Assembly (NCBI GenBank): GCA_963758525.1
Contig: CAVWVQ010000004.1
Coordinates: 32,001 to 96,000, forward strand
Length of the DNA: 64,000 nucleotides
Source: an uncultured Phycisphaerales bacterium
GTDB taxonomy: Bacteria; Planctomycetota; Phycisphaerae; Tepidisphaerales; Tepidisphaeraceae
Reading direction: 5' to 3'
Made by a program: the position numbers and the translations under genes. A model generated the notes under the pieces. The model had not been told where the DNA came from. It ran no database searches and was given only the letters and a program-made list of their open reading frames with translations. How positions within the stretch are numbered: position 1 is the first letter of the stretch; each line of letters begins with the position of its first letter. Below are positions 3,509 through 62,313 of this stretch, piece by piece.

Positions 3509-5428
3509 TCATTGCGGATTCACTTCGAGCCGGACGTAGTCGTAAAGAACGCCATCTGTCCAGGTGCGGACCTGCTTTGTGAGTTCGACGACATTCTCCC
3601 CCGCCTTCAGCAGCGACGCATCGAACTTCAAATCGCGCTCGACTTCAATGCTGCGGATCCCGTCGCGATGCATCACGCCCATGTTCGGCAGGTCTCCGGT
3701 GCTCCCGATCGACTTGCCATTGACGGCGGCATCCACCGGTCCTCCGCGAGCGCCGCAGATCGCCAATCGCAATGTCGCAGTGCCTTTTAGAGCCTTGTCC
3801 AGGTTAAACCGGATGCGCCAGGTCGTGTTCTTCCACCCGCCCTTGCCATCCGGCCGCGGCGGCTGGACGTAATTCCAGTCGCGCCGGTAGTCGCTCTTGC
3901 CGACCGTGAAATCGACGTCGTTGGGGAATTCCTGCGGGTAGAGGTTGTACAGCCCCCATTGCCAGTAGTGATCGCCATGACGGAATTCCTCGGCACTGCG
4001 ATTGGGAATCCCGATGTCCCAGAGCTGGCTGCCACATCGAACCGGAATCCAGGCCAATTCTCCCAGGTCGATATCCTTACCCTGCTCGATGTGCACATCA
4101 GCCCGGCTGAAATCGCCGAGGACGCCATCGGCAAATGCATAGAGCGTATAAACGCCGGGCCGGGCGTTGGGCACTTTGAAACGTCCGCTGGCATCGGCGC
4201 GAGTCCAATACTGATAGTGCTTCCCATCGATCTGCCAGTCGATCAATGCCTTGCGGCCGCGATCGAGCGTCGCCTCATACGGCGGCTGGGCCAATCCGAC
4301 CCAAGCCCCCGCGGCGCTGGCATTAGGCTCCTGAGGATCGCGTACGACAAGCTGCCCGCTGGCGCTGCCGCGCTGCTCGGCATGCTCATAGCCGGGAGCG
4401 TCCGCCCAGGCATACGGCCACGCTTTCTGCTCCTGTGCAGCACGGCCCAACGCGTCCTTCCACATCGCTTCGTTCGTTTCGCTGTGGTTGCAATAAATGC
4501 AGAACGGTCCAACGATTTTCGTCCAATCATCGGAGCCGTTGATATTGATGTCCTCGCCGCCGTAGTGGTTGCTGTGCCAAGCGAACAGAAGCGTGGGATC
4601 GGCGGGAGGCGACGGCTTGAGATCGATATGACCCGTCAGCTCCACCTTGATCGGGGCGCCGATGATGTACTCGATGCTGGGATTGACGATCCATAATCCG
4701 ACGTGCTGACTGGAGCTGCTCCATCCCCAGGCGGGCGTCTGGGAGAACATCGCGGAATAATCGTATTTGTGTTCGACCTCTCCCTGGTGAATGCCGGTGG
4801 TCATCCGCCGCGCTTCCCAGAGATTGAGTTGCTGGCCATTCACCCAATCCTCGCCGCTGATCATCTCCCGCTGTCGGCGGCTGTCCACGCTGAGATAGTC
4901 GAAAACCTTCGGATTCAGTTTGAGACAGAAGGTGCCGGCCTCAATGTTGAAGCCGGGATTTCCCGGATCGTGATGAATAATGGTCCATCCAAAGAGTCCT
5001 GAGTCACCGTGGTGGAGCGCATAGCGGATTTCGAGATTCATCGGCACCGCTCCCGGTTGGCCGTGGTACGGGAACCGCACCGCGACTTCTGCGATGGCGC
5101 CGCCATTCTTTGCTGGATCCTGTGTTATTTGAAATTCGAACGGAAGCGGCTTCTTCTCCGTTTTCGCCTGGCCGGGTGTTTCACCGTAACAATTCCAGTA
5201 CGCGCCGCCCCGGCTGAGCATGTCGACGCCACGGTATTGCAGCGAGCGCAGGTTGGCGTTTGTCTTGTCGATGATTGCCGAGACGATGCCGTTCGACAGA
5301 GTGACACTTGCGGCGTCCTGGGTGATGACGACTGCGTTCGGCTCCGCTGCCCTCGCGCGCGTGACGGCGCAGGTCACGATCAGCAGCAGCAATGCCGTTG
5401 TCAATTGTTTGGGGGGAGTGACGCCCAT
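3509..5428 (-). CDS. rhamnogalacturonan endolyase, PL4
   Basis: Signal peptide; VTLSNGIVSA, GEVEHKYDYS, HYGG, WTKIVGPF, WPYAW, YQYWTRAD..G.F...NARPGVYTLYA, LWDIGIPNRSAEEF and terminal VLYDYVRLE match PL4 domain order. Confidence 0.9.
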   Translation of the reverse strand: MGVTPPKQLTTALLLLIVTCAVTRARAAEPNAVVITQDAASVTLSNGIVSAIIDKTNANLRSLQYRGVDMLSRGGAYWNCYGETPGQAKTEKKPLPFEFQITQDPAKNGGAIAEVAVRFPYHGQPGAVPMNLEIRYALHHGDSGLFGWTIIHHDPGNPGFNIEAGTFCLKLNPKVFDYLSVDSRRQREMISGEDWVNGQQLNLWEARRMTTGIHQGEVEHKYDYSAMFSQTPAWGWSSSSQHVGLWIVNPSIEYIIGAPIKVELTGHIDLKPSPPADPTLLFAWHSNHYGGEDININGSDDWTKIVGPFCIYCNHSETNEAMWKDALGRAAQEQKAWPYAWADAPGYEHAEQRGSASGQLVVRDPQEPNASAAGAWVGLAQPPYEATLDRGRKALIDWQIDGKHYQYWTRADASGRFKVPNARPGVYTLYAFADGVLGDFSRADVHIEQGKDIDLGELAWIPVRCGSQLWDIGIPNRSAEEFRHGDHYWQWGLYNLYPQEFPNDVDFTVGKSDYRRDWNYVQPPRPDGKGGWKNTTWRIRFNLDKALKGTATLRLAICGARGGPVDAAVNGKSIGSTGDLPNMGVMHRDGIRSIEVERDLKFDASLLKAGENVVELTKQVRTWTDGVLYDYVRLEVNPQ

Positions 5429-5597
5429 GTGTCAGTTAACAAATCGGGATTCGCCGGGATATGCTACCGGTCACCCCTGAAGAAGCGGGCATTTGTCTCA
5501 TCGCACCGCCGTGCGATGAGCAGATGCCGGTTGAGTTCCTAGACCAAGATCAAGCATCCCTCTCAGAGCGTCAGCCACAGGGCTTGGTTTGGAAACG

Positions 5598-6623
5598 CTA
5601 TTTCCACGGAACCACGGTTTTATACTTATTTGGCAGCTTGTCGATGTTGCCGAAGGGGACTCCGGGGAGCGCCATATACTTGGAGGGATCGCGACCATCG
5701 GCCTCGGTCTCCAAAACGTCCAATGTGTCGAAATACTGCCGGTTACCGGTCGAGTAGCCAAGATTAAGGCCATACCCGTTGGAGTTCGCCGCATTGACCG
5801 CCGGGTCATAGGCGTAATCGTCGTTCACCGTCGTTACATGACCATCGGGGTACAACATGTTGAAGGAAGGGCGCGTACCCGACTTCCACGTGTGGGGAAA
5901 GTACCAGATGGGAGCATTGTTTGGTGTATTTGCGAAGAGAGTGCTTCTGTAAATACTGCCGTCTTTTATACCGCTGTTGTAATAAAACTCACACGCCATA
6001 ACGAGTTGGGGAGGGATCTGGTCGATCCTGCGATACGCATGCGTGTAAGAGCCGCCATACACGAACGAATAGGCGATAATAGGATTGATCATGTATGAGC
6101 CCCCGTAGGCGATATTCGCGTTCAGGACCGTACCCTCGCTTAGAATCGCCGGGCAGAATCTCACCCTTGCGAAGTCGGGATTCATCTGGTCATCAATCTG
6201 TCCATTTGAAGGAGGGAAGTTGGTGGCTGGATTCAGTGTGAATCCAAACGGAGGGAGGCCCAGGTAATTCACCAGTTGTCCGACATTCGCGCCGCGATCA
6301 CTGAAGGTATGGGTGGCGGCGTTGTAATTACTGGGGCTCGGCCCGCCCTGCCAGACGTCCAGAAAATTTTCCACATTAGGCGTCCCCCCGCCCGAACCCG
6401 AGTATTCCGGCAGGCATTGATGGTTGTCGATCGTGTAGCTGATCATTGCCATCCCGATCTGGCGCAGGTTCGACATGCAATTGGTCAACTGCGCCTGCTT
6501 TCTCGCCTTGCCCAAAGCCGGCAGCAGGATTGAAACCAGCACCGCGATGATGCCGATCACCACCAGCAGTTCGACCAGCGTAAAACCATGCAGAACCCTC
6601 TGAGAAGCGGCGTGTTTGCGCAT
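5598..6623 (-). CDS. prepilin-type N-terminal cleavage/methylation protein (DUF1559-like, H-X9-DG)
   Basis: Start reassigned to ATG 6623: [51 protein letters not shown]-terminal [11 protein letters not shown]. Confidence 0.9.
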
Positions 6624-6838: not shown

Positions 6839-6903
6839 ATTCTAGCACCATGTTCGACCCTGACAACGGGGGACTTCATGCATTTTTAGTATACTTTTGT
6901 CGC
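6839..6903 (-). promoter_or_regulatory. promoter with one GCGACAAAA box
   Basis: Minus strand: GCGACAAAA (6903-6895) ... TTGTCA (6866-6861)-N16-TAGAAT (6844-6839), with TG just before the -10. The box lies 1 bp from the distal-box position seen at the other copies; the proximal box is degenerate. Confidence 0.6.
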
Positions 6904-7099
6904 AATGCGCGGGGCTTCGATCCCCGTCCGCACGGAGCTCCGCAATGGGAGGAGCATATGGCGCGCCATCCTCGGTCTTCGTGCCCCTGGTGCTGCGGCT
7001 GCGGGTGAGAAATATTCAGTAGTTGCAGCATCACCAAAAGCCCCGTGCCGGTATATTACGTCGGCGGGTATCATCAACAGTCCGGCAGGAGCAGGCAAA

Positions 7100-9586
7100 A
7101 TGACGCGACGGCGGATGCATTCTTCGGGATTTCGTGCGGCGCATTGGGCAGTATTGATGGGGGCGATGGCGGCGGCCTTTGCCGGGGCGACGCGAGGGGA
7201 GGAGGGCGCGCCCGAACCGCGTGCGGCCAAGGCCGCGGGGGACCATGCTCCGGCGAAGAAGAAGCCCAAGCGCGACGTGATGAATCCCGACGCCTGGTAC
7301 AACAAAATGGACTACGGTCCCTTCCTTTCGGCCACCATCGTCAGCTCATTTCCCGATAAAAACATCACATATAAGGGCGTCGCGGTGAAGCTGACAGGCG
7401 ATGAGGCGGTCAACATTCTCTTCGACACACAGTTGATGCGCGTGGCGGCAGCGTGGAAGGGCGGGTTTCTAAAACTCGATGGGGTGGCCTATAGCGGAAC
7501 GCACGGGGTCAATCCGTCGCTGGCCGGAGAGCAAATCTTCGGCTCGCATAACTCGCCCGGCTGGGCTCATGAGGGGTCGTTCCACGATCCGCGCCCGGAG
7601 CCGTTTGGTGGAATGCCACGCAATTACATGCACTATCGCGGGCTTTACCGCGACGGCGGCCAGGTCGTCTTTTCCTACACCGTCGGCGATATGGACGTCC
7701 TCGAACTGCCCGGCACAGAGGGCGCCGGCGACGAGCTCGCCATCACGCGCACGATTCAGGCGGGCCCCTCGAAAAGCGCACAGACGCTGATCGTCAGTGA
7801 ACTGGACGCGGGCAAGGGAGGCGTCGGGCCGGTGTCGGGGGGAATCGGATCAGATCAGAAGGGACCTGCCGGCAAGACGATCGCCGTCATCGAGAATAAC
7901 GGCAACGCCACGGCAGCGGGTCTGACGGGCGCGCGAGCGGGGGCGACGTGGGAAGTGGTGGACGACAGGGGGCCGAGCATTCGGCTGACGCTTCCGCCGC
8001 ATGGTGCGAAGGAGACATTGAAGCTGGTGATTTGGAGCGGGCCCTCGGCGGGTCTGGAAAAGTTTGCCACGGCCCTGAAGGGGACTGCGATCGCAGACGT
8101 CGCGGCGCTGTGCAAGGGCGGCCCCGCCCGTTGGCCGCAAGAACTCGCCACGCAAGGGGCGCTTGGCGACGCCGATCCGAAGAACGCCAAGTCCGCTTAT
8201 GTTGTGGATGAGATTCTGCCGCCGAAAGAGAATCCCGGTCAGTCGTTTCTGCGCTTCGGCGGATTCGATCTGTTTCCGGATGGGAAGTCGGCGGCGCTGT
8301 GTACCTGGAACGGAGACGTATGGGTGGTGAAGGGAATCGATGCGAAGCTCGATCACCTGACCTGGCGACGAATTGCGGGCGGACTGTTTCAGACGCTGGG
8401 ACTGAAGATCGTCGACGGCGAGATCTACGTCATGGGACGCGATCAGATCACGCATCTGCACGATCTCAACGGCGATGGCGAAGCGGATTTCTACGAGAAC
8501 TTCAATAACGATGTGACGGTGGCCCCGGCGTTCCATGAGTTTGCCTTTGATCTCCAGCAGGACGCGGAGGGCAATTTTTATTTCGCCAAGGCCGGCGGAG
8601 TGCGTGCCGGCGGGCGTGGTTTTGAAACACCGGTTACTGCCGACCAGGGGACGGTGATGCGCGTGTCGAAGGATGGGAGCCGGCTCGATGTGATCGCTTC
8701 GGGGTTCCGCGCGCCCAACGGCATGTGCGTCGGCCCCGACGGGCAGATCGTGACCGGTGACAACCAGGGAAGCTGGATCCCGGTCGATCGCATCAACTGG
8801 GTGAAGCCGGGCGGCTTCTATGGCGTTCCCGAGTTGGCCCACCGCACGCCGACGCCAACGACCACCGACAACCCGCTCTGCTGGATGATCTATCCCAGCT
8901 GGGACAACTCCAACGGCGACCCCGTCTTCTGCACCAGCGACCGGTTCGGCCCGTTCAAGGATCAACTGCTCTATCTGTCCTACGGACAGTGTCACCTTTT
9001 CACCGTAATGAAAGAGGAAAAGGATGGCGAGATCCAGGGCGGTGTTTCCCGATTTCCTGTGGACTTTCAGACCGGCAGCATGCGGGCCCGCTTCAGCAAG
9101 ACCGACGGCGATCTGTACGTTTGCGGCCTCAAGGGCTGGCAAACGAGTGCCCGCAAAGACACCGCTTTCGAACGCGTGCGCTATACCGGCAAGCCGGCGC
9201 ACATGCCGATTGCGCTGCACGTGAAGGATAACGGAATTGAGATCACGTTCACCGATCCGGTGCAGAAGGATTCCGCCGCCGATCCGGGGGCGTGGGACAT
9301 TCAGCAGTGGAACTATCACTGGTCGTCGGACTACGGCTCCGGCGAATATTCGGTGGCCGATCCGTCGAAGAAAGGCCACGACACCGTGGCGGTCAAATCC
9401 GCGACGCTGTCCGATGACGGAAAGACGTTGTTCCTGGGCATCGACAACCTGCAGCCGGTGATGCAGATGCTGATCCGCGGCGAGATTGAAGCGGCCGACG
9501 GAACGCCAATGACGGTGGAGATCGCCAACACGATTAACGCGGTGAATGGGAAGAAGATGGTCCTGTCCGCGACGGAAAAGGGTTAA
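7100..9586 (+). CDS. DUF6797-like secreted protein with glucose/sorbosone dehydrogenase-like beta-propeller (copy 1)
   Basis: AGGAG then ATG 7100; signal-like N-terminus; MDYGPFLSATI, HYRGLY, GGFDLFPDG..CTWNGDVW, FYENFNND, HEFAFDLQ, GFRAPNG, DNQGSW, MRARFSKTDGDLYVCGLKGWQ. Confidence 0.7.
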   Translation: MTRRRMHSSGFRAAHWAVLMGAMAAAFAGATRGEEGAPEPRAAKAAGDHAPAKKKPKRDVMNPDAWYNKMDYGPFLSATIVSSFPDKNITYKGVAVKLTGDEAVNILFDTQLMRVAAAWKGGFLKLDGVAYSGTHGVNPSLAGEQIFGSHNSPGWAHEGSFHDPRPEPFGGMPRNYMHYRGLYRDGGQVVFSYTVGDMDVLELPGTEGAGDELAITRTIQAGPSKSAQTLIVSELDAGKGGVGPVSGGIGSDQKGPAGKTIAVIENNGNATAAGLTGARAGATWEVVDDRGPSIRLTLPPHGAKETLKLVIWSGPSAGLEKFATALKGTAIADVAALCKGGPARWPQELATQGALGDADPKNAKSAYVVDEILPPKENPGQSFLRFGGFDLFPDGKSAALCTWNGDVWVVKGIDAKLDHLTWRRIAGGLFQTLGLKIVDGEIYVMGRDQITHLHDLNGDGEADFYENFNNDVTVAPAFHEFAFDLQQDAEGNFYFAKAGGVRAGGRGFETPVTADQGTVMRVSKDGSRLDVIASGFRAPNGMCVGPDGQIVTGDNQGSWIPVDRINWVKPGGFYGVPELAHRTPTPTTTDNPLCWMIYPSWDNSNGDPVFCTSDRFGPFKDQLLYLSYGQCHLFTVMKEEKDGEIQGGVSRFPVDFQTGSMRARFSKTDGDLYVCGLKGWQTSARKDTAFERVRYTGKPAHMPIALHVKDNGIEITFTDPVQKDSAADPGAWDIQQWNYHWSSDYGSGEYSVADPSKKGHDTVAVKSATLSDDGKTLFLGIDNLQPVMQMLIRGEIEAADGTPMTVEIANTINAVNGKKMVLSATEKG

Positions 9587-12119: not shown

Positions 12120-13673
12120 CTACGGCGCGACATACGCAGCATCTCCCCCAAGAACCAAAAACTTACGCAGCAGCACGATATGCGTCACCGCGCCGATCAC
12201 GGCCAGGATGCTGCCGAGCAGGAATACGTAACTGTAGTCGTGTCCCCGCCATTGAACGAAACCCCCCAACGCTGGCGGCACAATCATCAGAGCAACGGCG
12301 CTGCAGACACCCGCGGCGGAAAAAAGCTCCGCGAAACGCAGAGGCGGCAGGAGGCGCTGCGCCAGCGAAGCCGTCCCGGTGATGTAGGATCCGGAGATCA
12401 CGGTATGGGCGGCCAGCGCGATGAAAAAAGTCGGAACGGTCGCGCCGAAGAAGAAAGCGAATGCTGCGACGCCGGCGTACAAAACGCTGAACAGCACCCC
12501 AAGCCGCAACGGATGAAAGCGGTCGGCGAGAATCCCCAGGGGATATGAGAGCACCAGCGAACAGACGTACCCCAGCGCCAGGCACTTTCCAAACAGCCCG
12601 TCGCTCATCCCGACGCTGCGGGCATGCAGAACCATGAAGCTGTTGACCGGCACGAACATCACCAGCCCGAACGTGATCGTGGCGAAGAACCAGAGGTAGT
12701 ACGGTTTGCTGAAGCAATCCTTGAAGTACATCAGCAGCCATGCCAGCAGTCCCCGGGCATCGTCAGCGGAGGGCGTGGGGGGCGGCGGCGGATACTGGCC
12801 CTCCTTCACGCCCAGGCACATCAGCGTGATGCCCCCGCCGTAGAGCAATCCCAGGCCGGCAAAGAACAGTGAAGCATGGCTGTCGGCTTTGCCCATCAGC
12901 CAATAGTTGAAGATGATCGCGACGGCCAGGCCGACCAGTCGGAACAGTCCGAAAAATCGCCCGACGACTTCCGCGGGGACCACATCGTTGATCAAGCCGC
13001 CGAACAGGGCGTTGGTGATAATGGTCGCGATTTCCAGGATGGTCCAGAAAAACGAAAAAATGGCGATTCGGCAGGTCGCTTCGGTGGGAGCATTTGATCC
13101 CAGTTGCACATGCGCCCAGTGGCCCAGATTCGGGGTGGCCGCAAGTCCCAGCATCGCCAGCACGATGAATGGCGTCGGAACGAGGATAAACGGAATGCGC
13201 CGTCCCCAGGGGCCGCGATGCCGGTCGGACTTGACGCCGATGCCGGGCCCGAGCAGGAGGCCGATCGCCGCGGGGATCGATCCGACGAGAAGCCCCACCA
13301 GCCAGTCCGGCGCGGCAAACCGCCGCAGCGTGATCTGAGCAAGCGGGAAGATCGTCCGCTCCTTGACGTTCCACGCGAAGTCGCCGCCCAGCAGCCAGCA
13401 GAACAAGACCGCCAGGCCCGCGGCGCTGTACGTCAGGGTGCCGACGGACCAGCGCTTGCCGAACCGCGCATACGGGATCGTCGGCGACGCGTCGATCAGA
13501 TCATCAGGAGCGATCGCACTGTCAGTTGGCACACCGCCCAACGATGCGTTTGCCGGCGAGGCTTCAGGCTCGTCGGGGTCTGAGATGGGGGTCAGTTGTG
13601 GCAAGGTTTCGCCTGAAAAACTGCTCGACCGCCGATATCCCTGGCCTTTGATGAACCCAAGGCGCTGACTCAA
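12120..13673 (-). CDS. MFS transporter
   Basis: About 12 hydrophobic segments; GVKSDRHRGPWGRRIPF and GILADRFHP loop motifs. Confidence 0.85.
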   Translation of the reverse strand: MSQRLGFIKGQGYRRSSSFSGETLPQLTPISDPDEPEASPANASLGGVPTDSAIAPDDLIDASPTIPYARFGKRWSVGTLTYSAAGLAVLFCWLLGGDFAWNVKERTIFPLAQITLRRFAAPDWLVGLLVGSIPAAIGLLLGPGIGVKSDRHRGPWGRRIPFILVPTPFIVLAMLGLAATPNLGHWAHVQLGSNAPTEATCRIAIFSFFWTILEIATIITNALFGGLINDVVPAEVVGRFFGLFRLVGLAVAIIFNYWLMGKADSHASLFFAGLGLLYGGGITLMCLGVKEGQYPPPPPTPSADDARGLLAWLLMYFKDCFSKPYYLWFFATITFGLVMFVPVNSFMVLHARSVGMSDGLFGKCLALGYVCSLVLSYPLGILADRFHPLRLGVLFSVLYAGVAAFAFFFGATVPTFFIALAAHTVISGSYITGTASLAQRLLPPLRFAELFSAAGVCSAVALMIVPPALGGFVQWRGHDYSYVFLLGSILAVIGAVTHIVLLRKFLVLGGDAAYVAP

Positions 13674-14997: not shown

Positions 14998-15002
14998 ACA
15001 CA

Positions 15003-18949: not shown

Positions 18950-19013
18950 ATTATACCATCGGCCGGATCGACCACAACGAAACTTTTGTCACCACTTCAT
19001 GCACCTTTGTCAC
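18950..19013 (-). promoter_or_regulatory. tandem-box promoter
   Basis: Minus strand: GTGACAAAG (19013-19005)-N12-GTGACAAAA (18992-18984)-N6-TTGTGG-N16-TATAAT (18955-18950), with an extended -10 TG. Confidence 0.75.
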
Positions 19014-21946: not shown

Positions 21947-21997
21947 GCTGCCTCGTCGCCCCACGAAAATGGCCACGTCCCTCAGTCGACACGGTCT

Positions 21998-23212: not shown

Positions 23213-23239
23213 CCGGAAGACCGCAGCGATTTGGCCTTT

Positions 23240-23305
23240 TCCCCCTCCCCTGGTACTCCGGACTTCGGTGAGCTCAGTCGAACCGGCGAGGGTTGGGGTG
23301 GGGGT
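23240..23305. repeat. REP-like hairpin element with internal insert
   Basis: CCCCCTCCCCTGGTACTCCG..GGCGAGGGTTGGGGTGGGGG interrupted by GACTTCGGTGAGCTCAGTCGAACC; related to the hairpin at 49166-49205. Confidence 0.5.
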
Positions 23306-47726: not shown

Positions 47727-47737
47727 AGCTGAAAATC

Positions 47738-48428: not shown

Positions 48429-48794
48429 TCAGCAGTAACAATAGCTTTCCCAATGATTAAGATGTGAAGAAACCGGGGGAGCCGAGATGGGTTCGCGCGG
48501 GCAGCCTACAAGATCACCAACTTCTCCGTAGCTTGCATTGAACTTATCCGCAGTGCCTGCATAGCAGATCGTGTTGCCCTTGCTCTCGCCCAGATACATG
48601 ACGTAAGCGGTGGCGAGCTGGCGCACGTTCAATGCGCATTGAATCGCTTTGGAAGCCTGACGCGCGCGTTTCAGGGCGGGCATCAAGAGGGCGATGAGAA
48701 TGGCGATGATCCCGATGACGACCAACAGTTCGACAAGTGTAAAACCGTTTGGACGCGAGGCACCCGCCGCGGCGGGTAAACTGTGGCACGACAT
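48429..48794 (-). pseudogene. truncated prepilin-type (DUF1559-like) gene
   Basis: [47 protein letters not shown], then stops at about 120 aa with no H-X9-DG motif. Confidence 0.7.
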
Positions 48795-51975: not shown

Positions 51976-52053
51976 GCGAAGCTCCTCGTCAAACCCGGGG
52001 GCAGTGCAAAGGGGACGAGGATGCGTTGAACTTCCCCGGATTCCAAGCGGTTT

Positions 52054-53115
52054 TCATCGGCTGTCCTTCGCCTGGCTGACGTTGATCAGGACCGCCAGCA
52101 GAATCAGACCGCCGCGCACGACGTGCTGCCAGTATTCACTGATGTTCAGCAGCGTCATTCCATTCACGAGGACGCCCAGGAAGATGACGCCGATGAGCGT
52201 GCCCCACATGGTGCCGGCGCCGCCCAGCAGGCTGGCGCCTCCGATGATCACTGCGGAAATAACGTCCAGCTCCCATCCCATCGCGGTGCTGGCTGAGCCG
52301 GCCATGATCTGCGAAGACTGCATGACGCCGCTGAGGGCCGCGAGCAAACCAAGCGCCTCCCATCGCCACGATTTTGACCTTGCGGACATTGATCCCGCTG
52401 AGTCGCGCCGCTTCGGCATTTCCGCCCACGGCATAGATGGCCCGTCCGAACGCCGTGTAGCCCATCATGATCTGAAAGAAGAGGAAAATGACCACGAACA
52501 CGATGGCGGGGAACGGGATCTTTAGCACGTAGCCGCCGCCCAGGAAATTGTACCAATCGGGAAACGGCGTCAGCGGGAAACCGTTGGTGAGCAACTCGGC
52601 GGCGCGCGCAGCACCGTCATCCACGCCAGGGTGGAAATAAACGTCGGCACCCTGAACCGCGTGCGGAGCATTCCGCTGATGCTGCCGACAAAAAATCCCA
52701 GCAGCAGACTGCTGAGAATCGCCAGCGTGATCGCCAACGGCAGCGACAGGTGCAGGGGAGCGCCGCTCAGCCAGCCGGTGAGCCATGCCGTGAGACAGCC
52801 GGAGAGCGCCACCGCCGAGCCGACGCTCAGATCGATCTCGCCGGCGATGATGACCATCGTCATGCCGAACGCGATGATGCCCTGCATCGACACGTTGCGC
52901 AAGACATTGAGCAGATTGTCGATCGAGAGAAACCCATCCGCCTTGAACGCCAGAAAGATGCACAGAGCCAGCAGCACCAGCTCCATGACCAGTTGCCGCG
53001 CCAGCCGGCTGCTGCGGCTCCAGGCCCCGAGCCGGACTTGCGTGGGTTGGGCGGTTGCGGCGTCAGTTGGCGCGGAGGCTATTGTGCCGGTTTCGTCGTT
53101 GGTTGCCGTTTCCAT
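52054..53115 (-). CDS. sugar ABC transporter permease (RbsC-like), frame breaks near 52608 and 52355
   Basis: GMTMVIIAGEIDLSVGS (ORF 52570-53115), FGRAIYAVGGNAEAARLSGINV (ORF 52136-52963), WELDVISAVIIGGASLLGG (ORF 52054-52434). Confidence 0.88.
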
Positions 53116-53122
53116 GTCGCTT

Positions 53123-54610
53123 TTAGTTCTCCATGCAACGCACGAAAAGATCGTCGACAGCCAGATTCGTCGGATCCACCTCGCCCGTGATTGTCCCCTT
53201 TTTCATGATGACAATGCGATGGCAGACTTCGATCAGCTCTTCCAGCTCGCTGGAGACGAAGACGCTGCTGATGCCCTGCTTTGCCAGGTCCCACATAATG
53301 TCGAACAGGTGCTGTTTTGCCTGCACATCGATCCCCCGCGTCGGCTCATCGAACAGGATTATTTTCGGCTGCGTTTCCAGCCATTTGCCGACGACGATTT
53401 TCTGCTGATTGCCGCCGCTGAGCGACGCGATTGGTTGCTCCATGTCGGAGAGCTTGATCGCCAGCTTCTTCACCATCGCCGCGACAATGTTCCTCTCCCG
53501 GCGGCGGGTGGTAAATCCCGCGGAAGAATGGCGGTCGAGGCTGGCCATGCAGGCATTGGCCCGCGTACTGAGTGTGATCGCCAGCGCCTGTTCCTTGCGA
53601 TGCTCCGGCGTAAATGCCAGGCCCATCTGCCGCATCCGCAGCGGGCTGGGGCTCCGCACGATCCGGCCGGCCACGAGAATTTCGCCGCTGTCGAAACCAT
53701 CCGCGCCAAACATCGCCCGCAGCAATTCCGTGCGCCCAGAACCGAGCATCCCCGCGATTCCCAATATCTCGCCGCGATAGACCGTCAGGTCCACGTCATG
53801 GAATTTGCCGGCACGGGTGAGCTTGCGCACCTGCAGCGTCGGCTCCGATCGTGGCTGCACGTCCATCGGACGCCGCTTGTGCTCGATTTCGCCGAACATC
53901 ATTTGAACGATCGACTTGTTGGTGCACCGGCTCATCGGTTCGCTGCCGATCAGCTTCCCGTCGCGCAGCACCGTCACCGTGTCGGCGATGCGCGACAGTT
54001 CCTGCAGGCGATGGGTGATGTGAATGATCACCACTCCCTTGGCCGCGAGCTGGCGAATCAAGGCAAACAGGCTCTCGGTTTCGTGGTGGGCCAGCGCACT
54101 GGTCGGCTCATCGAGCATCAGCACCGCGGGATTGAGGCTCATCGCCTTGGCGATCTCGATCACCTGCTGCTGCGCGATGCCCAGTTGCGACACTTTCTGC
54201 CGGACATCCAGATGCACCTTCATCTCCCCCAGCACTTGTTCCGCCCGCTGGCTGGTCGCCTTCCAGTCGATCCCCAGACCGCCGGCCTTGCGCGGCAAAC
54301 GTCCCAGAAGAATATTTTCGGCGATGCTCAGCTCGGGGATCAGGCTCATTTCCTGATGCACCGTGGCGATGCCGCAGCGATAGGCGTCCTGCGCGCTGCG
54401 GAGCCTCAGCTCTTTTCCGTTGAGCAGAATCTGTCCGCGGGTGGGTTCCAGGGCGCCGCAGAGAATTTTCACCAGCGTGCTCTTCCCCGCGCCATTCTTA
54501 CCGAGCAGGGCATGGACCTTGCCGCCCTCAAAATCCACCGACACGTCGTCGAGGGCGAGGGTCGCTGGGAATTCTTTACGGATCGCAATCGTCTGGAGCC
54601 GGCTGCTCAT
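53123..54610 (-). CDS. sugar ABC transporter ATP-binding protein (RbsA-like)
   Basis: GKNGAGKSTL, LMLDEPTS, LSGGNQQKI, FDEPTRGIDV; two fused ABC domains. Confidence 0.95.
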   Translation of the reverse strand: MSSRLQTIAIRKEFPATLALDDVSVDFEGGKVHALLGKNGAGKSTLVKILCGALEPTRGQILLNGKELRLRSAQDAYRCGIATVHQEMSLIPELSIAENILLGRLPRKAGGLGIDWKATSQRAEQVLGEMKVHLDVRQKVSQLGIAQQQVIEIAKAMSLNPAVLMLDEPTSALAHHETESLFALIRQLAAKGVVIIHITHRLQELSRIADTVTVLRDGKLIGSEPMSRCTNKSIVQMMFGEIEHKRRPMDVQPRSEPTLQVRKLTRAGKFHDVDLTVYRGEILGIAGMLGSGRTELLRAMFGADGFDSGEILVAGRIVRSPSPLRMRQMGLAFTPEHRKEQALAITLSTRANACMASLDRHSSAGFTTRRRERNIVAAMVKKLAIKLSDMEQPIASLSGGNQQKIVVGKWLETQPKIILFDEPTRGIDVQAKQHLFDIMWDLAKQGISSVFVSSELEELIEVCHRIVIMKKGTITGEVDPTNLAVDDLFVRCMEN

Positions 54611-55668
54611 TGCGACCCCTGGCTGGTCCATTCCTTGAACTGCTGCGAGAACGCGCTGACGCCCGCCGGATCCTCCCGCGAGAGCAAAATCCCTTTGACG
54701 ATCGTGGTTTTCTCAACAGGTTCGCCCTTGACGGCCTTGATCGCCGCGGCCACAGACTGCTCCCCCACCTCTACCGGCCGTTGACTGGTAATCGCTTGCA
54801 GAATGTTGTCGGGCGCCTGCAGCATGTCGAGCAACTGCTGACTGCAATCGGTTCCGAACACGGCGACTTTCCCCGCCTTTCCCGCATTTTTCACTGCGAG
54901 CGCCGCGCCGGTGGTGCCCCCTTCGTTGGCCGCGTAGACGATGTTGATGTCCGGGTTGGCCGTGAGCATATCGCCAACGGTTTTGATCGCCATTTCGGGC
55001 AGCCAGGCGTCCTGTTCAGCCACGATCTGCACGCCCGGCAACTGGGTCACCTGCGACTTAAAGCCATTGGTGCGGGCATTACTCTGCTCGGGAACCTGGC
55101 TCTTGAAGGCGACGATTCCGATCTTCGCCTTGCCCCCCAGATTCTTCTGGATATACGTTACCGCCGCCTTACCCGTCTGCTGCCCCAGATCCTCCGAACT
55201 GCATCCGATATACGCCTGGTAAAAGTCAGCATTGAGCGGCGTATTGTTGACGATGATGGAAATCCCCTTTTCGTGCGCCGTCTTGAGTGCCTGGATCGAT
55301 CCACTCTGGCTCATCGGTGAAATGATGATGGCATTGACGCCGCGAATCGCATAGGTGCTGATCAGCTCCACTTCCTTGTCAGGTTTGTTGTCGCTGTTCC
55401 CTTCGATGTATTGCACGCCGGCCGCGGTGGCCGCATGGCGCATGCCGAACTGCACCAGTCGGAAAAACTGGTCTTCCTGGAAGACGATACCCGCTAATTT
55501 GATCTTCGAGTTATCCGGCGTTGAAGCCTGAGTGGCCGCCCCCGAGCTGGAACTTCCCGCCTGCGTCCCGCCGCTGTCGCTCTTGCTGCACCCGTTGCTC
55601 CCCAGAAAAAACGCCCCCGCGACGATGACGATTACAGACAGTTTCGAAGTCCGCACGCATGCTCCCAT
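54607..55668 (-). CDS. sugar ABC transporter substrate-binding lipoprotein
   Basis: Lipobox-like FFLGSNGC; periplasmic binding protein I motifs (GVNAIIISP, ARTNGF, NIVYAANEGG, VFGTD). Confidence 0.9.
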   Translation of the reverse strand: MGACVRTSKLSVIVIVAGAFFLGSNGCSKSDSGGTQAGSSSSGAATQASTPDNSKIKLAGIVFQEDQFFRLVQFGMRHAATAAGVQYIEGNSDNKPDKEVELISTYAIRGVNAIIISPMSQSGSIQALKTAHEKGISIIVNNTPLNADFYQAYIGCSSEDLGQQTGKAAVTYIQKNLGGKAKIGIVAFKSQVPEQSNARTNGFKSQVTQLPGVQIVAEQDAWLPEMAIKTVGDMLTANPDINIVYAANEGGTTGAALAVKNAGKAGKVAVFGTDCSQQLLDMLQAPDNILQAITSQRPVEVGEQSVAAAIKAVKGEPVEKTTIVKGILLSREDPAGVSAFSQQFKEWTSQGSQ

Positions 55669-55841
55669 GTTGGAAAGGCCGCCCGCCGCCATAATTATAC
55701 TAAACTTCGCGGCAGAATAGTTGAATTGCCCTCAATCAGCCGGCGATGCGCCGGATGAGAAATCTCCGCTTTGCTCAGTCAGGAATTGACGCTTGCCCCC
55801 TTCACGGCCAGGCACTGCGCGCCCCAAGCACAATTTGGGGG

Positions 55842-55905
55842 AGAGTACCACTCTTTCGACCGCCGACAAGGCTGTTTTTGTCACCACGTTATGTGTTTCT
55901 GTCAC
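55842..55905 (-). promoter_or_regulatory. tandem-box promoter
   Basis: Minus strand: GTGACAGAA (55905-55897)-N12-GTGACAAAA (55884-55876)-N6-TTGTCG-N16-TACTCT (55847-55842), with an extended -10 TG. Confidence 0.75.
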
Positions 55906-56009
55906 CCGGACACCGAGCGATGGTTTGTAATGCGCGACATTTCTACGTTCTGAGTTCGATCTGCAAGACGCGGAACACACCGCCGCCCCGCCGCTGCCCC
56001 TTTTTTCTC

Positions 56010-59000
56010 CTACCGCGCCGGCACATGCACGGTCGTCGACGATGAAATGCCGGCGGCGTTCACCGCCGTCACCTGGTAGGAGTAGTCGATGCTGTCGTCG
56101 AGACCCTTTTTGGCCGCATTCTTGTCGGTGACGCCTTGATCGGTGTAGGTGGTTTCAACAAGCGCGGTCAGGAAGTTGGACGGCCACTGGAATGACCTCT
56201 CGGCGCCCGTGGAGCGGTAGATGACGTAGCCGGTCGCGCCGGGAACCGCGGACCAACTGAGCGTGATGGCGTTCCCGTTCCTCGTCTTCTTCCAGTGTCC
56301 CACGAGCTCCGCGGGCGCTCCGCTGGGCTTGGGAGGCAGTGGCTGGGCGCTCACGACCGGAGACGGCCCGCTCGTGCCGGCCGCGCTGGAGGCCCTCACA
56401 AAATAGCTGTACATCCGGCCATCCGACGTCGCGCTGTCGACGTAAGCCGTCTCCGTCGTTGCATCGTCGACGATTGCCCAGCGCAACGGATAGACGCCGC
56501 CGACACCGTCCGCGTGCAGCGCGGCGCGCCAGACGTTGTAGTAGTTTGCCCCCGGCGACGCGTTCCAATGCAATGCGACGTTGTGATGGCCGGAGGCGGT
56601 GACCTTCAAGCCCGTGGGCGCCGGCGGGACGACGGAGGGGAGGCGGGCCGACGGCATCACTCCAGAGCTGGGTGATGAGGGGGCTCTGGCGGATCGGGTT
56701 CACTGACTGCACGGCATAATAGTATTGCGCTCCACTGACAGCACTCGTGTCAATAAATGCGGCCCGGCTCGTGTCGGAGCCACTCGTGGGGCCGATCACC
56801 CCGGTTGCGATCGATGCGAAACCAGCGCCCGGCGCAGTCGAGCGCAGGATGTTGTAGCTGGTTGCTCCGGGAACCGCCGGCCAACGGACCAGGACGCGGC
56901 TGTTGCCGGGATACGCCGTGACGCTGGCGGGCGCGGGAGGGACGTAGCCGGTCAATTCAAGGCGCAGGTAGTCCACCATGAGATAGGCGGTGCCGTTCTT
57001 GGCGTTCATCTGGATGGTGATGGTGTTCTGCCCGGAGTGGAGCATTTTGCCGGGGAGATTGATCCGCTCGTCGGAGAACGGGCCGTGATCGCCGAAATGA
57101 ATGCTGCTGTCGTCGGAATACGGAGGATTGAAGCCGTCGGCATCAATAGTCTGAGGCGCGGCGGTCACTCCGGCCGCTCCACCGAGGTTGACGTCGTTGA
57201 CACCGACGACGACATGGCCCCCATCATCTCCGGCGCATCCAATGTAAATTGAAGCTTCTGATCCGCTGGCGGGCGGCTGCGCAAGATTGAACGTGAGTTT
57301 GCCCGTGGCAGACTGGTAATTCCCGGCTAAGTCAGGCGCGGAGGGCAGGCAGTAATTCCAGTCGGCCTCCCACCGGCTTTTCCCGACGGTGAAATTCAGT
57401 CCGTTCGGGAAATCCAAAGGATATTCCATTTGGCCTCCCCACACCGGGGTGGGAAAGCCGAGCTTGGGCGGCACGCCTGGCGCCCAGAAATCGTCGCCAT
57501 GACGAAACTTGTCGGCCTTTCGATTCGGATAACCCAGCTCAAACACCGTTGCGCCGACGCGTTTGGGGATCCAAGTCACGGTTCCCAAGTCAGTCGTCGC
57601 GCCGGCGGCAACTTTCACCGCAAACGGCGTCGCGGGCAGGTCGAGCTCCAACGGCGGGTTGCCGCCCGTCTGATTTTGGGAGAGGAATGTTCCTGCCGCT
57701 CCCGGTCCGTAGGCCCACAACGAGTAATGATCTCCGGGGAGCACATGGGGGAAGCTGAAGCTGCCGGTCGAGTCTGTCTGCGTCCAGAACTGATAGGGCT
57801 TGAGCCATTTCTGAAAATCGTATGTACCGTTGTTGGTTTGGGGCTGCTGCTCCAGACCCACCCACAGCCCAGCGGCGGAGGCGTTGGGATTGCCGCTGTC
57901 ATTGATGACAAATTTCCCAGCAACCGTGCCGCGCCCTGAAGCGGGAACAAAGCTCGGGTTCTTGAACCAGCTATACGGCCACGCCTGTTTTTCAGCCTCG
58001 GCCTGCGCCAGTGCGTCTTGATACAGCATCGCCGCCGCCCGCTTCGAGTCCGTGATGTTGGTGGGAACGTCATTCAGGTAGATAAACCATGGCCCGCACG
58101 TCTTGGTCCAGATTTCGCCGTCGGCAAAATGCCCGTCCGAGCCCATTCCCAGTTCACCGGTGAGAATCGAGTTGTTCAATTCGCTGTAGGGATAGACCGA
58201 CACGTCCCGCTTCATCGGTCCGCCGTTGCTGAATTCCATGTTGGTCATCATCCAGATGCCGACGTTCAAGCCGCCCTGCCCGACGCTGCTCCATCCCCAG
58301 GCGCGCAGATCGGCGTGATCCTGTCCATAGATAAACTTGTCGGCGTACTGACCTTGCTGTGTGCCGTTGAGGTTGACGGTGATTTCATGCGGCGAGTTGG
58401 GCACTTTCACGCCGGATTTGCTGGGCACCCCAATCAAGAAGTTGCGCATCGCATCGGCGCTCAGCCAGTTGAAGTTTGGCGGAACTCGCGTGACGACGCC
58501 CCACGCGCCCACTTCGAATGCGACATCCTGGCGCCGGTGAGTCATGACGGCGGTGGAATAGTATCCCGGCGATCCGCGCAGCATCGAGAAATGCACTTCC
58601 ATCACGCCGTTGGAGTCGGTCGTGCTGAGCAACATCACGTCGGCGTACTTCCCGCCGTTGCTGGCAGGATCAGTGGCAAGCGAATACTCGTAAACGCCGC
58701 TGCCGAGGCTGAATCCGCCGTAGTAGTATTCTCCTTTGCCCTTGAGCACCTCGCTGGTTTGAAGAGTGCCGCCGTTGCGGTGCGTGTACGTCACCGAATT
58801 GAGCCGGGCAGTCTTCTTCACGATCGCGATGGAAACCAAGCCATTTCCCATCGTCACCGTGCCGTCGCCGTTATCGGTAACAGTCACAGGCGGTCCCGAC
58901 CCCGTTCCGCCGCCGGGAATGTTCGCCAACGCCGCGCAATGATGTGGCGACAGGACGACCGCCAGCGAAACAAAGGACAGAAGATAGCGTGTGCAGCAGC

Positions 59001-59010
59001 TTGGCATCAT
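56010..59010 (-). CDS. PL4-like rhamnogalacturonan lyase with three C-terminal fibronectin type III repeats; frame break near 56680
   Basis: Signal peptide; VTMGNGLVSI, WTKTCGPW, WPYSW, YQFWTQTD, FELGYPNRKADKFRHGD, VDYLRLE; Fn3 repeats (WPAVPGATSYNILRS; WNASPGANYYNV and WSAVPGATGYVIYRS in ORF 56010-56660). Confidence 0.8.
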
Positions 59011-59041
59011 CCACCGGTATACCCGTTCTGAGTTCGTTTGT

Positions 59042-59071
59042 TGGTCTCACCAAATACTTAACTTCTGTCAC
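59042..59071 (-). promoter_or_regulatory. degenerate tandem box upstream of the PL4-Fn3 gene
   Basis: Minus strand GTGACAGAA (59071-59063)-N12-GTGAGACCA (59050-59042); 21-bp period kept, but no clear -35/-10 at the standard distance. Confidence 0.4.
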
Positions 59072-59301
59072 CCGAACATTCCGGGATTCGCATTGTCTCA
59101 TCCCATCTCGGGACTCTCCTGCGCAAACCGGAAGATCTGTTTCTACGTGGGCTCGATCGCTCTGTGCAACCAGGGCATCGCCGACCACTTCGTGAGAAAG
59201 ATGCTAATTTGTCGCTGGCCCGCATCCGGACTTATACTAAAATGTTGTTTGGCATCAAAGCATTGGCAGGCTATGTTGCACGACTGTTAATCTGATTAGC
59301 T

Positions 59302-60138
59302 ATGGCCGGCTCTTCGAGCATTCAAGAACCCGTCGCGCAGCGGATCGGCGGCATCGCAGTCGAGCGCCCGCGAGACGAGGTGCCGCGGGGGCTGCCGGTA
59401 GCGCTGCGCACCGTACAACATTCGATTATTTCCAAAGGACGCTTCGCTCAGACCTGGTCAAAGCGCATGGTTCTGGTGAAGTGGGTCATTTCTGGTGAAG
59501 CGGTGATGGGAGTCGCGGGGCGCAGGTTGACGTTTGGACCGGGCGAGGCAGCGGTCTACCTGCCGAGCATTCCCCACCGGTTCTGGGCGGTGGCCGATGA
59601 GAACGAGATGTGCTGGTTCTCGGTCGATGGACCGCTTGCCGAACAGTTCGCCATCGAGTTGGAATTCCGACCAGGGGTGTATCCACTGGGGCCGGCCCCC
59701 GTCGAGAAGATCCACGACTTGATGGAAAGCCTGAAGGACCACAGCATCCAGGGACGCAGGCAGGCGAGTCTGATGGTGATCGGGATGATGTACCAGGTCG
59801 CCAACGCGATCCGCGCACCGCAGGTTCCTCCCGTTGTCCTCAAAGCGCAGCACAAGATCCAGCAGGGCTTCGGCGATCCGGATCTCTCAACGGGATCGAT
59901 CGCAAGGGATCTGGGGTATCACCGCGGCTCGCTCAGCCGATTGTTTCACAAGCACACGGGGATCACGATCATTGACTTCCTTACCGACGCTCGGCTGCAG
60001 GAAGCCAAAGCATTGCTGGCCCACACGAACGACAAGATCTCGGACATCTCCAAAAAGTGCGGATTCCGGGAGCCGACGTATTTCCATCACTGGTTTCGGA
60101 AGCACACCGGCGTGACGCCCAACGATCTGCGTGAGTAA
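59302..60138 (+). CDS. AraC-family transcriptional regulator
   Basis: Cupin-like N-domain (PGEAAVYLPSIPHRF) plus double HTH: LSTGSIARDLGYHRGSLSRLFHKHTG..ARLQEAKALL..ISDISKKCGFREPTYF..FRKHTGVTP. Confidence 0.95.
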   Translation: MAGSSSIQEPVAQRIGGIAVERPRDEVPRGLPVALRTVQHSIISKGRFAQTWSKRMVLVKWVISGEAVMGVAGRRLTFGPGEAAVYLPSIPHRFWAVADENEMCWFSVDGPLAEQFAIELEFRPGVYPLGPAPVEKIHDLMESLKDHSIQGRRQASLMVIGMMYQVANAIRAPQVPPVVLKAQHKIQQGFGDPDLSTGSIARDLGYHRGSLSRLFHKHTGITIIDFLTDARLQEAKALLAHTNDKISDISKKCGFREPTYFHHWFRKHTGVTPNDLRE

Positions 60139-61254: not shown

Positions 61255-61335
61255 TCGGTCGAATTCGTTGAAGGTCCTGATGCGCCCTTCGCTCTTGTGC
61301 GGATCGCCACAGCTGAATTCCTGGCACCAACCGGG

Positions 61336-62313
61336 TCAATACCAAATCCTGCCGCCGGCGCCAGGAGTCCACGCATCTTTGGCAGAGTTGTTCGTGTCAA
61401 CCGTTAGCGATGTTGGGTTTCCGCCCCATCCTGGGGTGACGCTCGCGGACATGCCGTAGGCGGATGTGCCCGCCGGTGTGGCGGGGATGCTGATGACCCA
61501 CTCCACGTGACCATCCGCAAAAGCCTCGTTAAAGCCCCTGATAAACGCTGTCATCGCGGTAGGGCCAGGCGTGGACCGATGATTGATGTAAAAACTGGCC
61601 GGCGCGTCGAGCGAGCCATACACAATCTGATCCGCAAACAGCGGCTTGAGAGCAGTCCCCCCTTCCCAGTATTTGTGCGGCCATCTGGAAGGATCCCGCA
61701 CCTGCGATTGATAGTTTCTCCCAGTGGGAACCAACGGATAGTATCCGCTGGCGAGATATACGTAACTGGAATGCAGCATTGCATTCGGCTCAGACCCATC
61801 GACCGCATAACCCAGGATGGTGAGCCCGCCCCAAAAGGGAGTCGTGACGATCTGGTTTGACGGACATTGCCAAATGCCATCGGTCACAAAACTGGAAATG
61901 ACCGGGCTGACTGGTGCGCCGTCGGGATGAAAGCACGCGACGTACATGTCCCATCGGAAATACTCCATGTAATCGCGAACGCTACTGGGCGCAACGATCG
62001 CCCGCACCGGCAGCGGGAAGTTCCCCCTGTTTTCCTGGCAATACTCGATCGCCCCGGCAGCGAGCTGCTTCAGATTGCTTTCACACGTGACGATGTGAGA
62101 CGCTTCGCGCGCCTTACCCAATGCGGGCAGCAGCAGCGATATCAACAACGCGATAATCCCGACTACAACAAGCAGTTCACTCAGGGAAAATGCCGCGCGT
62201 TTGCCCCTCGCCACTCCGGGGCGTTCAACGAAAGAGGAAGCGAGTCGTCGGTTCCTGAAGCTTGCCACGGCGGCATTCCCAATCGCTTGCGTTGAGTCAA
62301 CACCCCCTTGCAT
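61336..62313 (-). CDS. prepilin-type N-terminal cleavage/methylation protein (DUF1559-like)
   Basis: [61 protein letters not shown]; start uncertain. Confidence 0.88.
   Translation of the reverse strand: MQGGVDSTQAIGNAAVASFRNRRLASSFVERPGVARGKRAAFSLSELLVVVGIIALLISLLLPALGKAREASHIVTCESNLKQLAAGAIEYCQENRGNFPLPVRAIVAPSSVRDYMEYFRWDMYVACFHPDGAPVSPVISSFVTDGIWQCPSNQIVTTPFWGGLTILGYAVDGSEPNAMLHSSYVYLASGYYPLVPTGRNYQSQVRDPSRWPHKYWEGGTALKPLFADQIVYGSLDAPASFYINHRSTPGPTAMTAFIRGFNEAFADGHVEWVISIPATPAGTSAYGMSASVTPGWGGNPTSLTVDTNNSAKDAWTPGAGGRIWY

Follow-up and report, generated by a model that had tools for sequence, protein, structure and literature searches.

Six prepilin-type genes in a glycan-degradation locus

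The window analyzed here is a stretch of 64,000 nucleotides from an uncultured Phycisphaerales bacterium (positions 32001-96000 of contig C4; the genome assembly has 6.47 Mb, 6 contigs and 91% completeness). It contains six genes for prepilin-type proteins, termed pil1 to pil6, which were previously described as members of DUF1559/H-X9-DG, one of the largest planctomycete paralogue families and one without an assigned function. A scan of the long open reading frames (ORFs) of the window, 40 of them against Pfam and 22 against NCBIfam, revealed that the region is dense in genes for glycan utilization, including glycoside hydrolases (GH) and polysaccharide lyases (PL). The identified features are listed in Table 1.

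In each of the six genes, a class III signal stands before a pilin helix, in agreement with the six prepilin-type genes and conserved N-terminal helices of a preliminary description of this DNA made from its sequence alone. The signal reads G↓FTLVELL in pil1, pil2, pil4 and pil5, A↓LTMIELL in pil3 and A↓FSLSELL in pil6, with glutamate at position +5 in every case. The N-terminal models TIGR02532 or PF07963 matched pil1, pil2 (N-terminal ORF), pil4 and pil5. The DUF1559 model PF07596 (“SBP_bac_10”) matched pil1 (23.4 bits; cut-off 23.3) and pil4 (31.1 bits), and the H-X9-DG model TIGR04294 matched pil2 (24.4 bits) and pil4 (21.1 bits; cut-off 19). The link of pil3 and pil6 to this prepilin-type family of the Planctomycetota-Verrucomicrobiota-Chlamydiota (PVC) bacteria is provided only by a DGHV motif in the alignment, and pil5 lacks the corresponding region. 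Overall identity to pil1 is 14-36%, in agreement with the earlier impression of conserved helices joined to variable heads.

The six genes lie where the preliminary description had placed them, and its observations largely hold; pil1, pil3, pil4 and pil6 are intact, but pil2 is frameshifted and pil5 is a short fragment. The reading frame of pil2 is broken at 18700-18730, which leaves an N-terminal ORF (18409-18846) and a C-terminal ORF (17756-18673) that holds the H-X9-DG motif. pil5 encodes approximately 105 mature residues (the helix and about 50 more), has neither head nor H-X9-DG motif, and was not called as a gene by a coding-score caller. Since the window contains several other apparent frameshifts (the second PATR protein, 42465-46538, is read in three frames; a ribose-type ATP-binding cassette (ABC) permease gene, 52057-53115, is in fragments; and the tail of a PL4-like gene, 56155-56660, looks out of frame), an assembly error is at least as likely as a real lesion in pil2. 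The only public sequencing run found, from soil DNA, shares 0.10 of the sequence words and yielded two short contigs, which do not cover the break site; no RNA run was listed. Two more DUF1559 genes of the genome have their break at nearly the same place, only a few codons away (C3:3873270-3873300 and C3:3326730-3326760). In all three, one base has apparently been lost just after LLPAL..AR, in GC-rich sequence, which would reflect either a systematic assembly error or a common slippage site (phase variation).

Pfam assignments and gene order confirmed that two of the pilin-like genes head lyase operons: pil1 precedes a PL4 gene, and pil2 is followed by genes for a PL26 lyase, a dehydrogenase and a major facilitator superfamily (MFS) transporter. 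Among the 40 window ORFs compared with Pfam, none matched TonB receptor domains (Plug, TonB_dep_Rec) or SusD, and none matched T2SSE, T2SSF, secretin or Peptidase_A24. The window is devoid of a TonB receptor, a pilus ATPase and a prepilin peptidase, as described before; all of these are encoded in other parts of the genome, on contig C3.

Upstream of pil2 and pil3 lies a bipartite site, GTGACAAA-N13-GTGACAAA, with the core TGCAT(G)AAGT, placed in both cases just before -35/-10-like hexamers. When at most one mismatch was allowed in the two octamers, four such sites were found in the 6.47-Mb genome, three of them in the window. A 20-letter version of the motif likewise gave three window matches, compared to 0.09 expected. 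The 21-bp spacing of the direct repeats points to an activator or repressor that binds as a dimer; candidates are the products of the AraC gene at 59302 and the ROK gene at 51025. No exact 9-mers common to at least three of the six pilin upstream regions were found; the motif emerged by inspection and with a gapped pattern. The promoter motif that the preliminary description had assigned to three of the pilin genes is real; it is present at pil2, at pil3 and at the PATR giant, with a related site at pil1.

Table 1. Features of the window (positions refer to the 64,000-nucleotide stretch; the arrow marks the signal cleavage point).
Feature	Position	Strand	Context or remarks
PL4 rhamnogalacturonan lyase, signal peptide	3509-5428	-	second gene behind pil1; Pfam Rhamnogal_lyase, fn3_3, CBM-like
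pil1, DUF1559 prepilin-type, intact	5598-6623	-	Pfam N_methyl and DUF1559 matches
Related operator-like site, GCGACAAA...TGCATGAAGT	6873-6902	-	upstream of pil1, in the divergent gap to the DUF6797 gene
DUF6797/GSDH-like/PVC-type haem-binding protein	6905-9586	+	divergent from pil1
MFS transporter	12120-13673	-	behind pil2; Pfam
GFO-type dehydrogenase	13729-15051	-	behind pil2; Pfam
PcRGLX/PL26 exo-lyase	15003-17567	-	behind pil2; Pfam
pil2, DUF1559/H-X9-DG prepilin-type	17756-18846	-	frameshifted after LLPALAA
Operator, 0 mismatches	18985-19013	-	upstream of pil2
Mannoside-degrading operon: GH92, two unknown genes, GH130, GH38	19271-28121	-	divergent from pil3; Pfam
Operator, 0 mismatches	28199-28227	+	between GH92 (divergent) and pil3
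pil3, prepilin-type, intact	28273-29292	+	signal AA↓LTMIELL; DGHV motif
DUF6797 protein	29476-31830	+	behind pil3; Pfam
PATR-repeat giant, 1744 amino acids	34418-39652	-	PEP-CTERM tail
Operator, 1 mismatch	39665-39693	-	directly upstream of the PATR giant
Weaker operator half-site	39896-39915	+	before the ECF sigma gene
Extracytoplasmic function (ECF) sigma factor	40011-40550	+	Pfam
FecR-type anti-sigma factor with LamG domain	40587-42395	+	Pfam
Second PATR protein	42465-46538	+	frameshift-split; PEP-CTERM-like tail in the last frame
pil4, DUF1559/H-X9-DG prepilin-type, intact	46746-47726	+	modelled
Single-pass partner protein, 181 amino acids	47738-48283	+	directly after pil4
pil5, prepilin helix and short tail	48429-48794	-	probable fragment
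ROK protein, sugar ABC transporter (fragmented permease), PL4-like protein, AraC regulator	51025-60138		candidate locus regulators and transporters
Second PL4-like gene	56155-59010		Pfam
pil6, divergent prepilin-type, intact	61336-62313	-	signal AA↓FSLSELL; ADGHV motif
GH29 fucosidase and SASA esterase	within window		Pfam
GH43-like gene	within window		Pfam

Next to the operator sites, the gap that separates the PATR giant from the ECF sigma gene contains a purine-rich run of tandem GGGACA(A/G)A units (39740-39800). A UPF0236-family transposase gene (62588-63949) is divergent from pil6. Contig C4, which has a length of 174 kb, holds seven members of the pilin-like family, and this region may be mobile or the product of a recent rearrangement.

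A multi-copy family with a predicted pilin fold and a putative partner protein

The distribution of the family in the genome was examined with a hidden Markov model (HMM) built from the N-termini, which retrieved 59 ORFs at 45 bits or more. After removal of the pilins of a canonical system and merging of fragments, 54 family entries remained, a number in line with the copy numbers given for Rhodopirellula baltica (74) and P. limnophila (68, two of them essential) in PMC2754498 and PMC10632474. Six of the 54 lie in the window, compared to 0.53 expected. The nearest Atlas clusters are DUF1559 clusters of Planctomycetota, Verrucomicrobiota and Armatimonadota. Among 37 full-length paralogues, mean pairwise identity falls from 72% (mature residues 1-30) through 44% (residues 31-60) to 18% in the head, a gradient to be anticipated where a single peptidase, a single platform and a single filament core have to accommodate many different heads. 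A subgroup of the prepilins (loci L004, L005, L021 and L024) carries ARYVRWQAFSRD... after the helix in place of the usual C.SNLRQ motif; members of this subgroup also stand behind sigma/FecR gene pairs, together with a small partner.

Candidate assembly machinery was located on contig C3. It comprises a set resembling a type II secretion system (T2SS) at approximately 610-623 kb, with secretin, GspE, GspF and GspG; a type IV pilus-like set at 1205000-1219600, with PilB-like and PilC-like proteins, two PilT-like ATPases (one split) and four or five genes for pilin-like proteins; a Tad set at approximately 2528-2537 kb; and a type IVa pilus set at approximately 4117-4128 kb. Two Peptidase_A24 genes are present (C3:1911036 and C3:2528924). 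The best-scoring non-members in the family HMM search were two pilins of the set at C3:1208-1213 kb (56.7 and 46.7 bits), above PilA (30.4 bits) and GspG (20.6 bits). Because its pilins score highest among non-members, we infer that the retraction-capable set at C3:1205-1219 kb is the best candidate for the host machine of the DUF1559 proteins.

The structure of the pil4 product was modelled with 66 homologues (mean predicted local distance difference test, pLDDT, 91; predicted template modelling score 0.87). In the model, residues 21-71 form a helix, which is joined to an alpha/beta head of some 250 residues. A Foldseek search of the Protein Data Bank (PDB) returned only the N-terminal helices of pilins, with a best E value of 0.29. 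In an independent structure search with VIA (48,161 chains), the best match was PilA4 (6xxd; Z 4.8, root mean square deviation (rmsd) 4.0, 123 aligned positions, model residues 18-319), and EpsG (4lw9) was also matched (Z 4.1, rmsd 3.2, 94 aligned). PilV, ComP and GspK followed further down, and pilins made up nearly all of the top 16. These structural matches are weak and agree with a profile search of the PDB with the sequence, which retrieved pilin N-termini only. Head residues that are invariant in the 67-sequence alignment include C54, H72, D99, Y107, C160, R278, H279, D289 and H291. With modest confidence, the DUF1559 proteins are thus predicted to adopt the fold of type IV pilins, having Glu5 and an alpha-1 helix 50 residues long, the head being modelled as an enlarged pilin fold.

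DUF1559 proteins are referred to as “solute-binding proteins” in PMC4807772 and PMC2754498, in keeping with the Pfam name; elsewhere in the literature they have no assigned role. This reading was considered and set aside, as the pil4 fold searches gave pilins only. No solute-binding chain appeared among the 41 VIA matches with Z of at least 2 or among the Foldseek matches, a missing match that does not exclude such a fold.

The gene directly after pil4 encodes a protein that belongs to no Pfam or NCBIfam family. This partner protein spans the membrane with a single N-terminal helix, and its conserved outer domain (FFSDDDGKTWF...VKKPGD..W...CPDG) contains two conserved cysteines. It has 28 paralogues in the genome according to phmmer and 29 according to a profile search; for at least 20 of the 28, a family gene precedes on the same strand at a distance of no more than 400 bp. 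In the window the partner gene occurs only at pil4. The partner model reached a pLDDT of 88.6, and no Foldseek match with E≤0.001 was obtained for it (best VIA Z 2.4). Its sequence similarity in the PDB is confined to the Asp-box motif of sialidases (E 7e-4).

Complex prediction was performed with the pil4 head (residues 46-326) and the outer domain of the partner (residues 45-181). The interface score (ipSAE) was 0.71, compared to 0.45 for the best control, with agreement between runs in at least 74% of contacts and a partner pLDDT of at least 82. The mark applied to such predictions, which this pair passed, is reached by 116 of 157 solved complexes and by 2 of 215 mismatched pairs, counts that hold only roughly when own alignments are used. 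These results support binding of the partner to the pil4 head, as a prediction from models. The predicted contacts on pil4 involve residues 52-74 (alpha-1C), 221-229 and 289-292 (the DGH motif).

The partner gene was detected in 23 of 24 genomes of the same family (1-7 copies; the 24 include one unpublished genome, G204); of 200 other genomes sampled across the phylum, 3 carried it. We also considered whether the partner is an ancient companion of the pilins and rejected this, because a DUF1559 gene lies within 1.5 kb at only 5 of 31 partner loci in the relatives. The tight pairing of pilin and partner is therefore mostly an expansion in the present genome.

Genomic neighbourhood of the family

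The neighbourhood of the 48 entries outside the window was surveyed by taking the two nearest non-family genes on each side (154 proteins). For the control, of identical design, 38 random 12-kb regions were drawn and the neighbours of their central genes were taken (152 proteins). Genes were called by a codon-score heuristic and assigned with Pfam at E≤1e-5. Enrichment was observed for PATR-repeat proteins (10 entries, representing 9 genes, compared to 0; p 0.002), ECF sigma factors (9 and 1; p 0.02) and 2-hydroxyacid dehydrogenases (6 and 0; p 0.03). FecR proteins were found 4 and 0 times (p 0.12), and enzymes of the GH, PL and carbohydrate esterase (CE) types 18 and 9 times (p 0.11).

Several loci share a cassette-like order on one strand. 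Two begin with regulatory genes: sigma factor, FecR, pilin, partner and GH2 (L023), and sigma factor, anti-sigma-like protein, pilin, partner, GH78, pilin, partner and GH35 (L024). Three others begin with PATR, dehydrogenase, pilin and partner and continue with an alginate-lyase-like gene (L002), a GSDH gene (L028) or an SSF gene (L035). A D-2-hydroxyacid dehydrogenase gene lies directly upstream of DUF1559 genes at five loci on contigs C1, C2 and C3 (L001, L002, L028, L032 and L035), often after a PATR giant. Another recurring neighbour is the DUF6797 type of protein, which adjoins pil1 (divergent) and pil3 (same operon); the copy at 6905-9586 combines a GSDH-like region with a weak hit to the PVC-type haem-binding family. 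Large dehydrogenase-like genes resembling this DUF6797 pair come after pilin-partner pairs at L012 and L028. The planctomycete cytochrome domains PSCyt/PSD are present in genomes of the same family. FtsZ_C had no match in the present genome (91% complete), and it was matched in 13 of 14 control genomes.

The preliminary description had proposed that co-location of pilin and glycan-enzyme genes be examined genome-wide. The plain census did not reach significance, but the first downstream gene on the same strand (partner skipped) encodes a GH, PL or CE enzyme at 10 of the 48 entries, compared to 9 of 152 random genes (6%; p 0.004, post hoc), and at 11 of 48 if a GH2 gene one small ORF further is counted. 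As a partial replicate, 40 DUF1559 loci from other genera of the family were inspected; 37 had a downstream ORF on the same strand, and 50 ORFs were scanned. Glycan-related genes were found downstream at 7 of these 37 loci, a count without a matched control. They encode CBM96 with a LacI regulator, GDSL, glycoamylase, sulfatase, DUF4838, BNR and a sugar solute-binding protein.

The association of pilin-like with PEP-CTERM proteins, noted earlier for the window, proved to be a genome-wide pattern. The PEP-CTERM model TIGR02595 gave 19 hits, 14 of which have a family entry no more than 6 kb away; with positions drawn at random 2000 times, the mean was 1.7 and the maximum 7. In the window, the tail of the PATR giant scored 23.7 bits (cut-off 16; 34445-34519), and the second PATR protein ends in the same tail in another frame. 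Two PF09721 exosortase genes are located on contig C3.

Conservation of the pilin-PL26 arrangement was also tested, and rejected: a DUF1559 N-terminus was present within 6 kb at 1 of 48 PL26 loci of other genomes, the single case being a Tepidisphaeraceae metagenome-assembled genome (MAG). The closest PL26 relative is encoded in a MAG labelled Chthoniobacterales. A verrucomicrobial origin of the present genome was nevertheless set aside in view of the missing FtsZ_C match and the PSCyt/PSD domains, which make Planctomycetota the likely phylum.

Possible roles and relation to known systems

As a means by which planctomycetes might take up whole polysaccharides without TonB/Sus systems, we tentatively favour the view that the DUF1559 proteins are locus-specific accessory pilin subunits on a shared filament system for glycan acquisition, and regard this as possible rather than probable. 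The window would then represent a super-locus for glycan degradation, with DUF1559/H-X9-DG genes at the head of enzyme operons, or within them, under one operator. After cleavage by a prepilin peptidase, the proteins would be assembled into a shared pilus or pseudopilus whose genes lie elsewhere, and their variable heads would make contact with the glycan degraded by the respective locus. Retraction would draw this glycan into the periplasm, and the lyases, mannosidases, dehydrogenases and MFS/ABC transporters from the same operons would complete its utilization there. The role of surface adhesin may fall to the PEP-CTERM/PATR giants and that of sensor to the FecR-LamG/ECF sigma pair.

The conservation of the helix, the presence of the machinery elsewhere in the genome, the operator and the downstream enzymes speak for such capture subunits, which the preliminary description had already proposed. 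Several observations weigh against them. Structure prediction, suggested there for the heads and run on pil4, yielded a pilin fold, but no lectin or carbohydrate-binding module (CBM) fold was among the Foldseek and VIA matches, no motif for glycan binding was seen in the head, and all VIA Z scores were below 5. pil2 is frameshifted and pil5 a stub, and position -1 is alanine instead of glycine in pil3 and pil6. Linkage of pilin and PL26 is missing at 47 of the 48 PL26 loci elsewhere, including all three relatives with 70-74% identity. The plain census of neighbouring enzymes is not significant, the downstream tally was made post hoc and counted by hand, and approximately four fifths of the family entries have no glycan enzyme next downstream, their contexts being glycosyltransferases, housekeeping genes or an empty same strand. 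Sugar regulation through the shared motif, the second half of the earlier claim on the promoters, is inferred from gene content only. Finally, the alpha-1C face packs against neighbouring subunits in known pili, and a partner seated on this face and on the DGH motif may, according to the model, compete with filament packing. Glycan capture by DUF1559 heads is plausible but unproven.

The predicted complex counts in favour of a different role, in which the DUF1559 proteins do not polymerize and are periplasmic proteins anchored in the inner membrane by the pilin helix, many with a partner, acting as scaffolds or co-sensors that feed FecR/ECF sigma systems or organize periplasmic enzymes. The interface score above the controls, the position of the interface on alpha-1C and the DGH motif, the partner paralogues directly downstream of family genes and the excess of ECF sigma and FecR neighbours all point in this direction. 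Yet a simple anchor could do without a Glu5 conserved in 37 paralogues and without their 72% identity in a stretch of 30 residues, and the partner gene is absent at four of the five headed window pilins and is seldom close to a DUF1559 gene in the relatives. The partner also appears somewhat sticky in the model, as the control in which the pilin was replaced and the partner kept still gave 0.45. We consider this role rather doubtful. Slightly less likely again, in our judgement, is that the DUF1559 proteins are cargo-specific pseudopilus subunits or adaptors of a T2SS, which would not bind free glycan and would instead assist in moving the enzymes encoded nearby, and the PEP-CTERM giants, through the outer membrane. 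Their N-termini are most like those of GspG and ComG-type pseudopilins (NCBIfam), EpsG and GspK are among the structural matches, most neighbours are secreted (the PL4 enzyme with its signal peptide, PATR/PEP-CTERM giants, GH genes) and a secretin/GspE/GspF/GspG set is available at C3:610-623 kb; in addition, according to PMC11685898, a planctomycete up-regulates type II secretion when grown on fucoidan. Against this, GspG of the C3 set scored lowest of the canonical pilins of the genome in the N-terminal HMM, and several cassettes run on into MFS, SSF, GFO and 2-hydroxyacid dehydrogenase genes, which are not secreted cargo. We know of no T2SS that uses dozens of cargo-specific pseudopilins.

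It is also conceivable, and in our view quite improbable, that adjacency involves no shared function, DUF1559 and glycan-enzyme genes (the latter about 6% of genes) both being numerous and scattered by duplication. The non-significant census, the lack of conserved PL26 synteny, the recent expansion (29 partner copies, compared to 1-7 in relatives) and the transposases nearby are what this would predict. It leaves unexplained the operator that joins pil2, pil3 and the PATR giant and is almost absent elsewhere in the genome, the recurring one-strand orders (sigma-FecR-pilin-partner-GH and PATR-dehydrogenase-pilin-partner), the co-location with PEP-CTERM proteins far above random draws and the downstream enzymes in other genera.

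For the view of DUF1559 proteins as filament-borne subunits, the locus offers a testable handle: three pilin-led operons with predictable substrates (rhamnogalacturonan and mannosides), a near-unique operator, a predicted pilin-partner pair and a candidate retractile machine. If the heads do bind glycans, they would represent a new class of substrate-capture proteins and a marker for glycan loci in PVC genomes. In the literature that mentions DUF1559, no reference to operon position, an operator, a partner or PEP-CTERM linkage was found; DUF1559 genes in enzyme operons were not described in the literature searched, although supplements may list such genes. Our searches thus found related ideas in print, not this arrangement.

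Minor pilins and pseudopilins (PilV, PilX, ComP, GspG-K) share with the DUF1559 proteins the class III signal, Glu5, the long alpha-1 helix and a pilin-type sheet, and DNA-binding pilins of the ComP type exemplify specialized heads on a common filament. The DUF1559 proteins differ in their head of approximately 250 residues with large insertions, in the dozens of paralogues per genome, in the position of their genes away from assembly genes and inside catabolic operons, and in the H-X9-DG motif, which does not occur in minor pilin families. Pilin-type signals are also found on proteins for sugar acquisition in the archaeal bindosome, since Sulfolobus sugar-binding proteins carry class III signal peptides; these have solute-binding folds and serve ABC transporters, whereas a whole pilin fold is predicted here.

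Closer in lineage is Akkermansia muciniphila, a PVC bacterium without SusC/D in which, according to PMC12418764 and PMC13174399 (both citing Davey et al. 2023), mucin uptake requires MUL genes (MUL1/MUL2) for pili and a periplasmic complex. Compared by description only, MUL2 consists of a single conserved locus of four genes, among them those for a PilM protein and one archaeal-type pilin (Amuc_1102 type), in contrast to the multi-copy family spread over many operons in the present genome. For planctomycetes themselves, a crateriform/fibre model of dextran uptake is cited in PMC11131199.

The polysaccharide utilization loci (PULs) of Bacteroidota, which rely on SusC/SusD and ECF control, are likewise substrate-specific clusters with envelope genes of their own, and several of the clusters in the present genome stand under an ECF sigma/FecR-type pair. 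The window has neither a TonB-dependent receptor nor SusD, so that the adjacent SusC and SusD genes typical of Sus-like PULs are absent (0 of 40 ORFs match), and its accessory genes encode pilin-like proteins and PEP-CTERM giants; the likeness is one of logic only. In a bolder and clearly more doubtful version of the filament proposal, a modular “pilin PUL”, each glycan locus would bring its own DUF1559 head, often a partner, a PEP-CTERM adhesin and an ECF sigma/anti-sigma pair, and all heads would ride on one retractile pilus that captures the polymer and reels it into an enlarged periplasm. If true, such an arrangement would correspond in function to SusC/SusD and would account for a gene family that is among the largest unexplained ones of the phylum.

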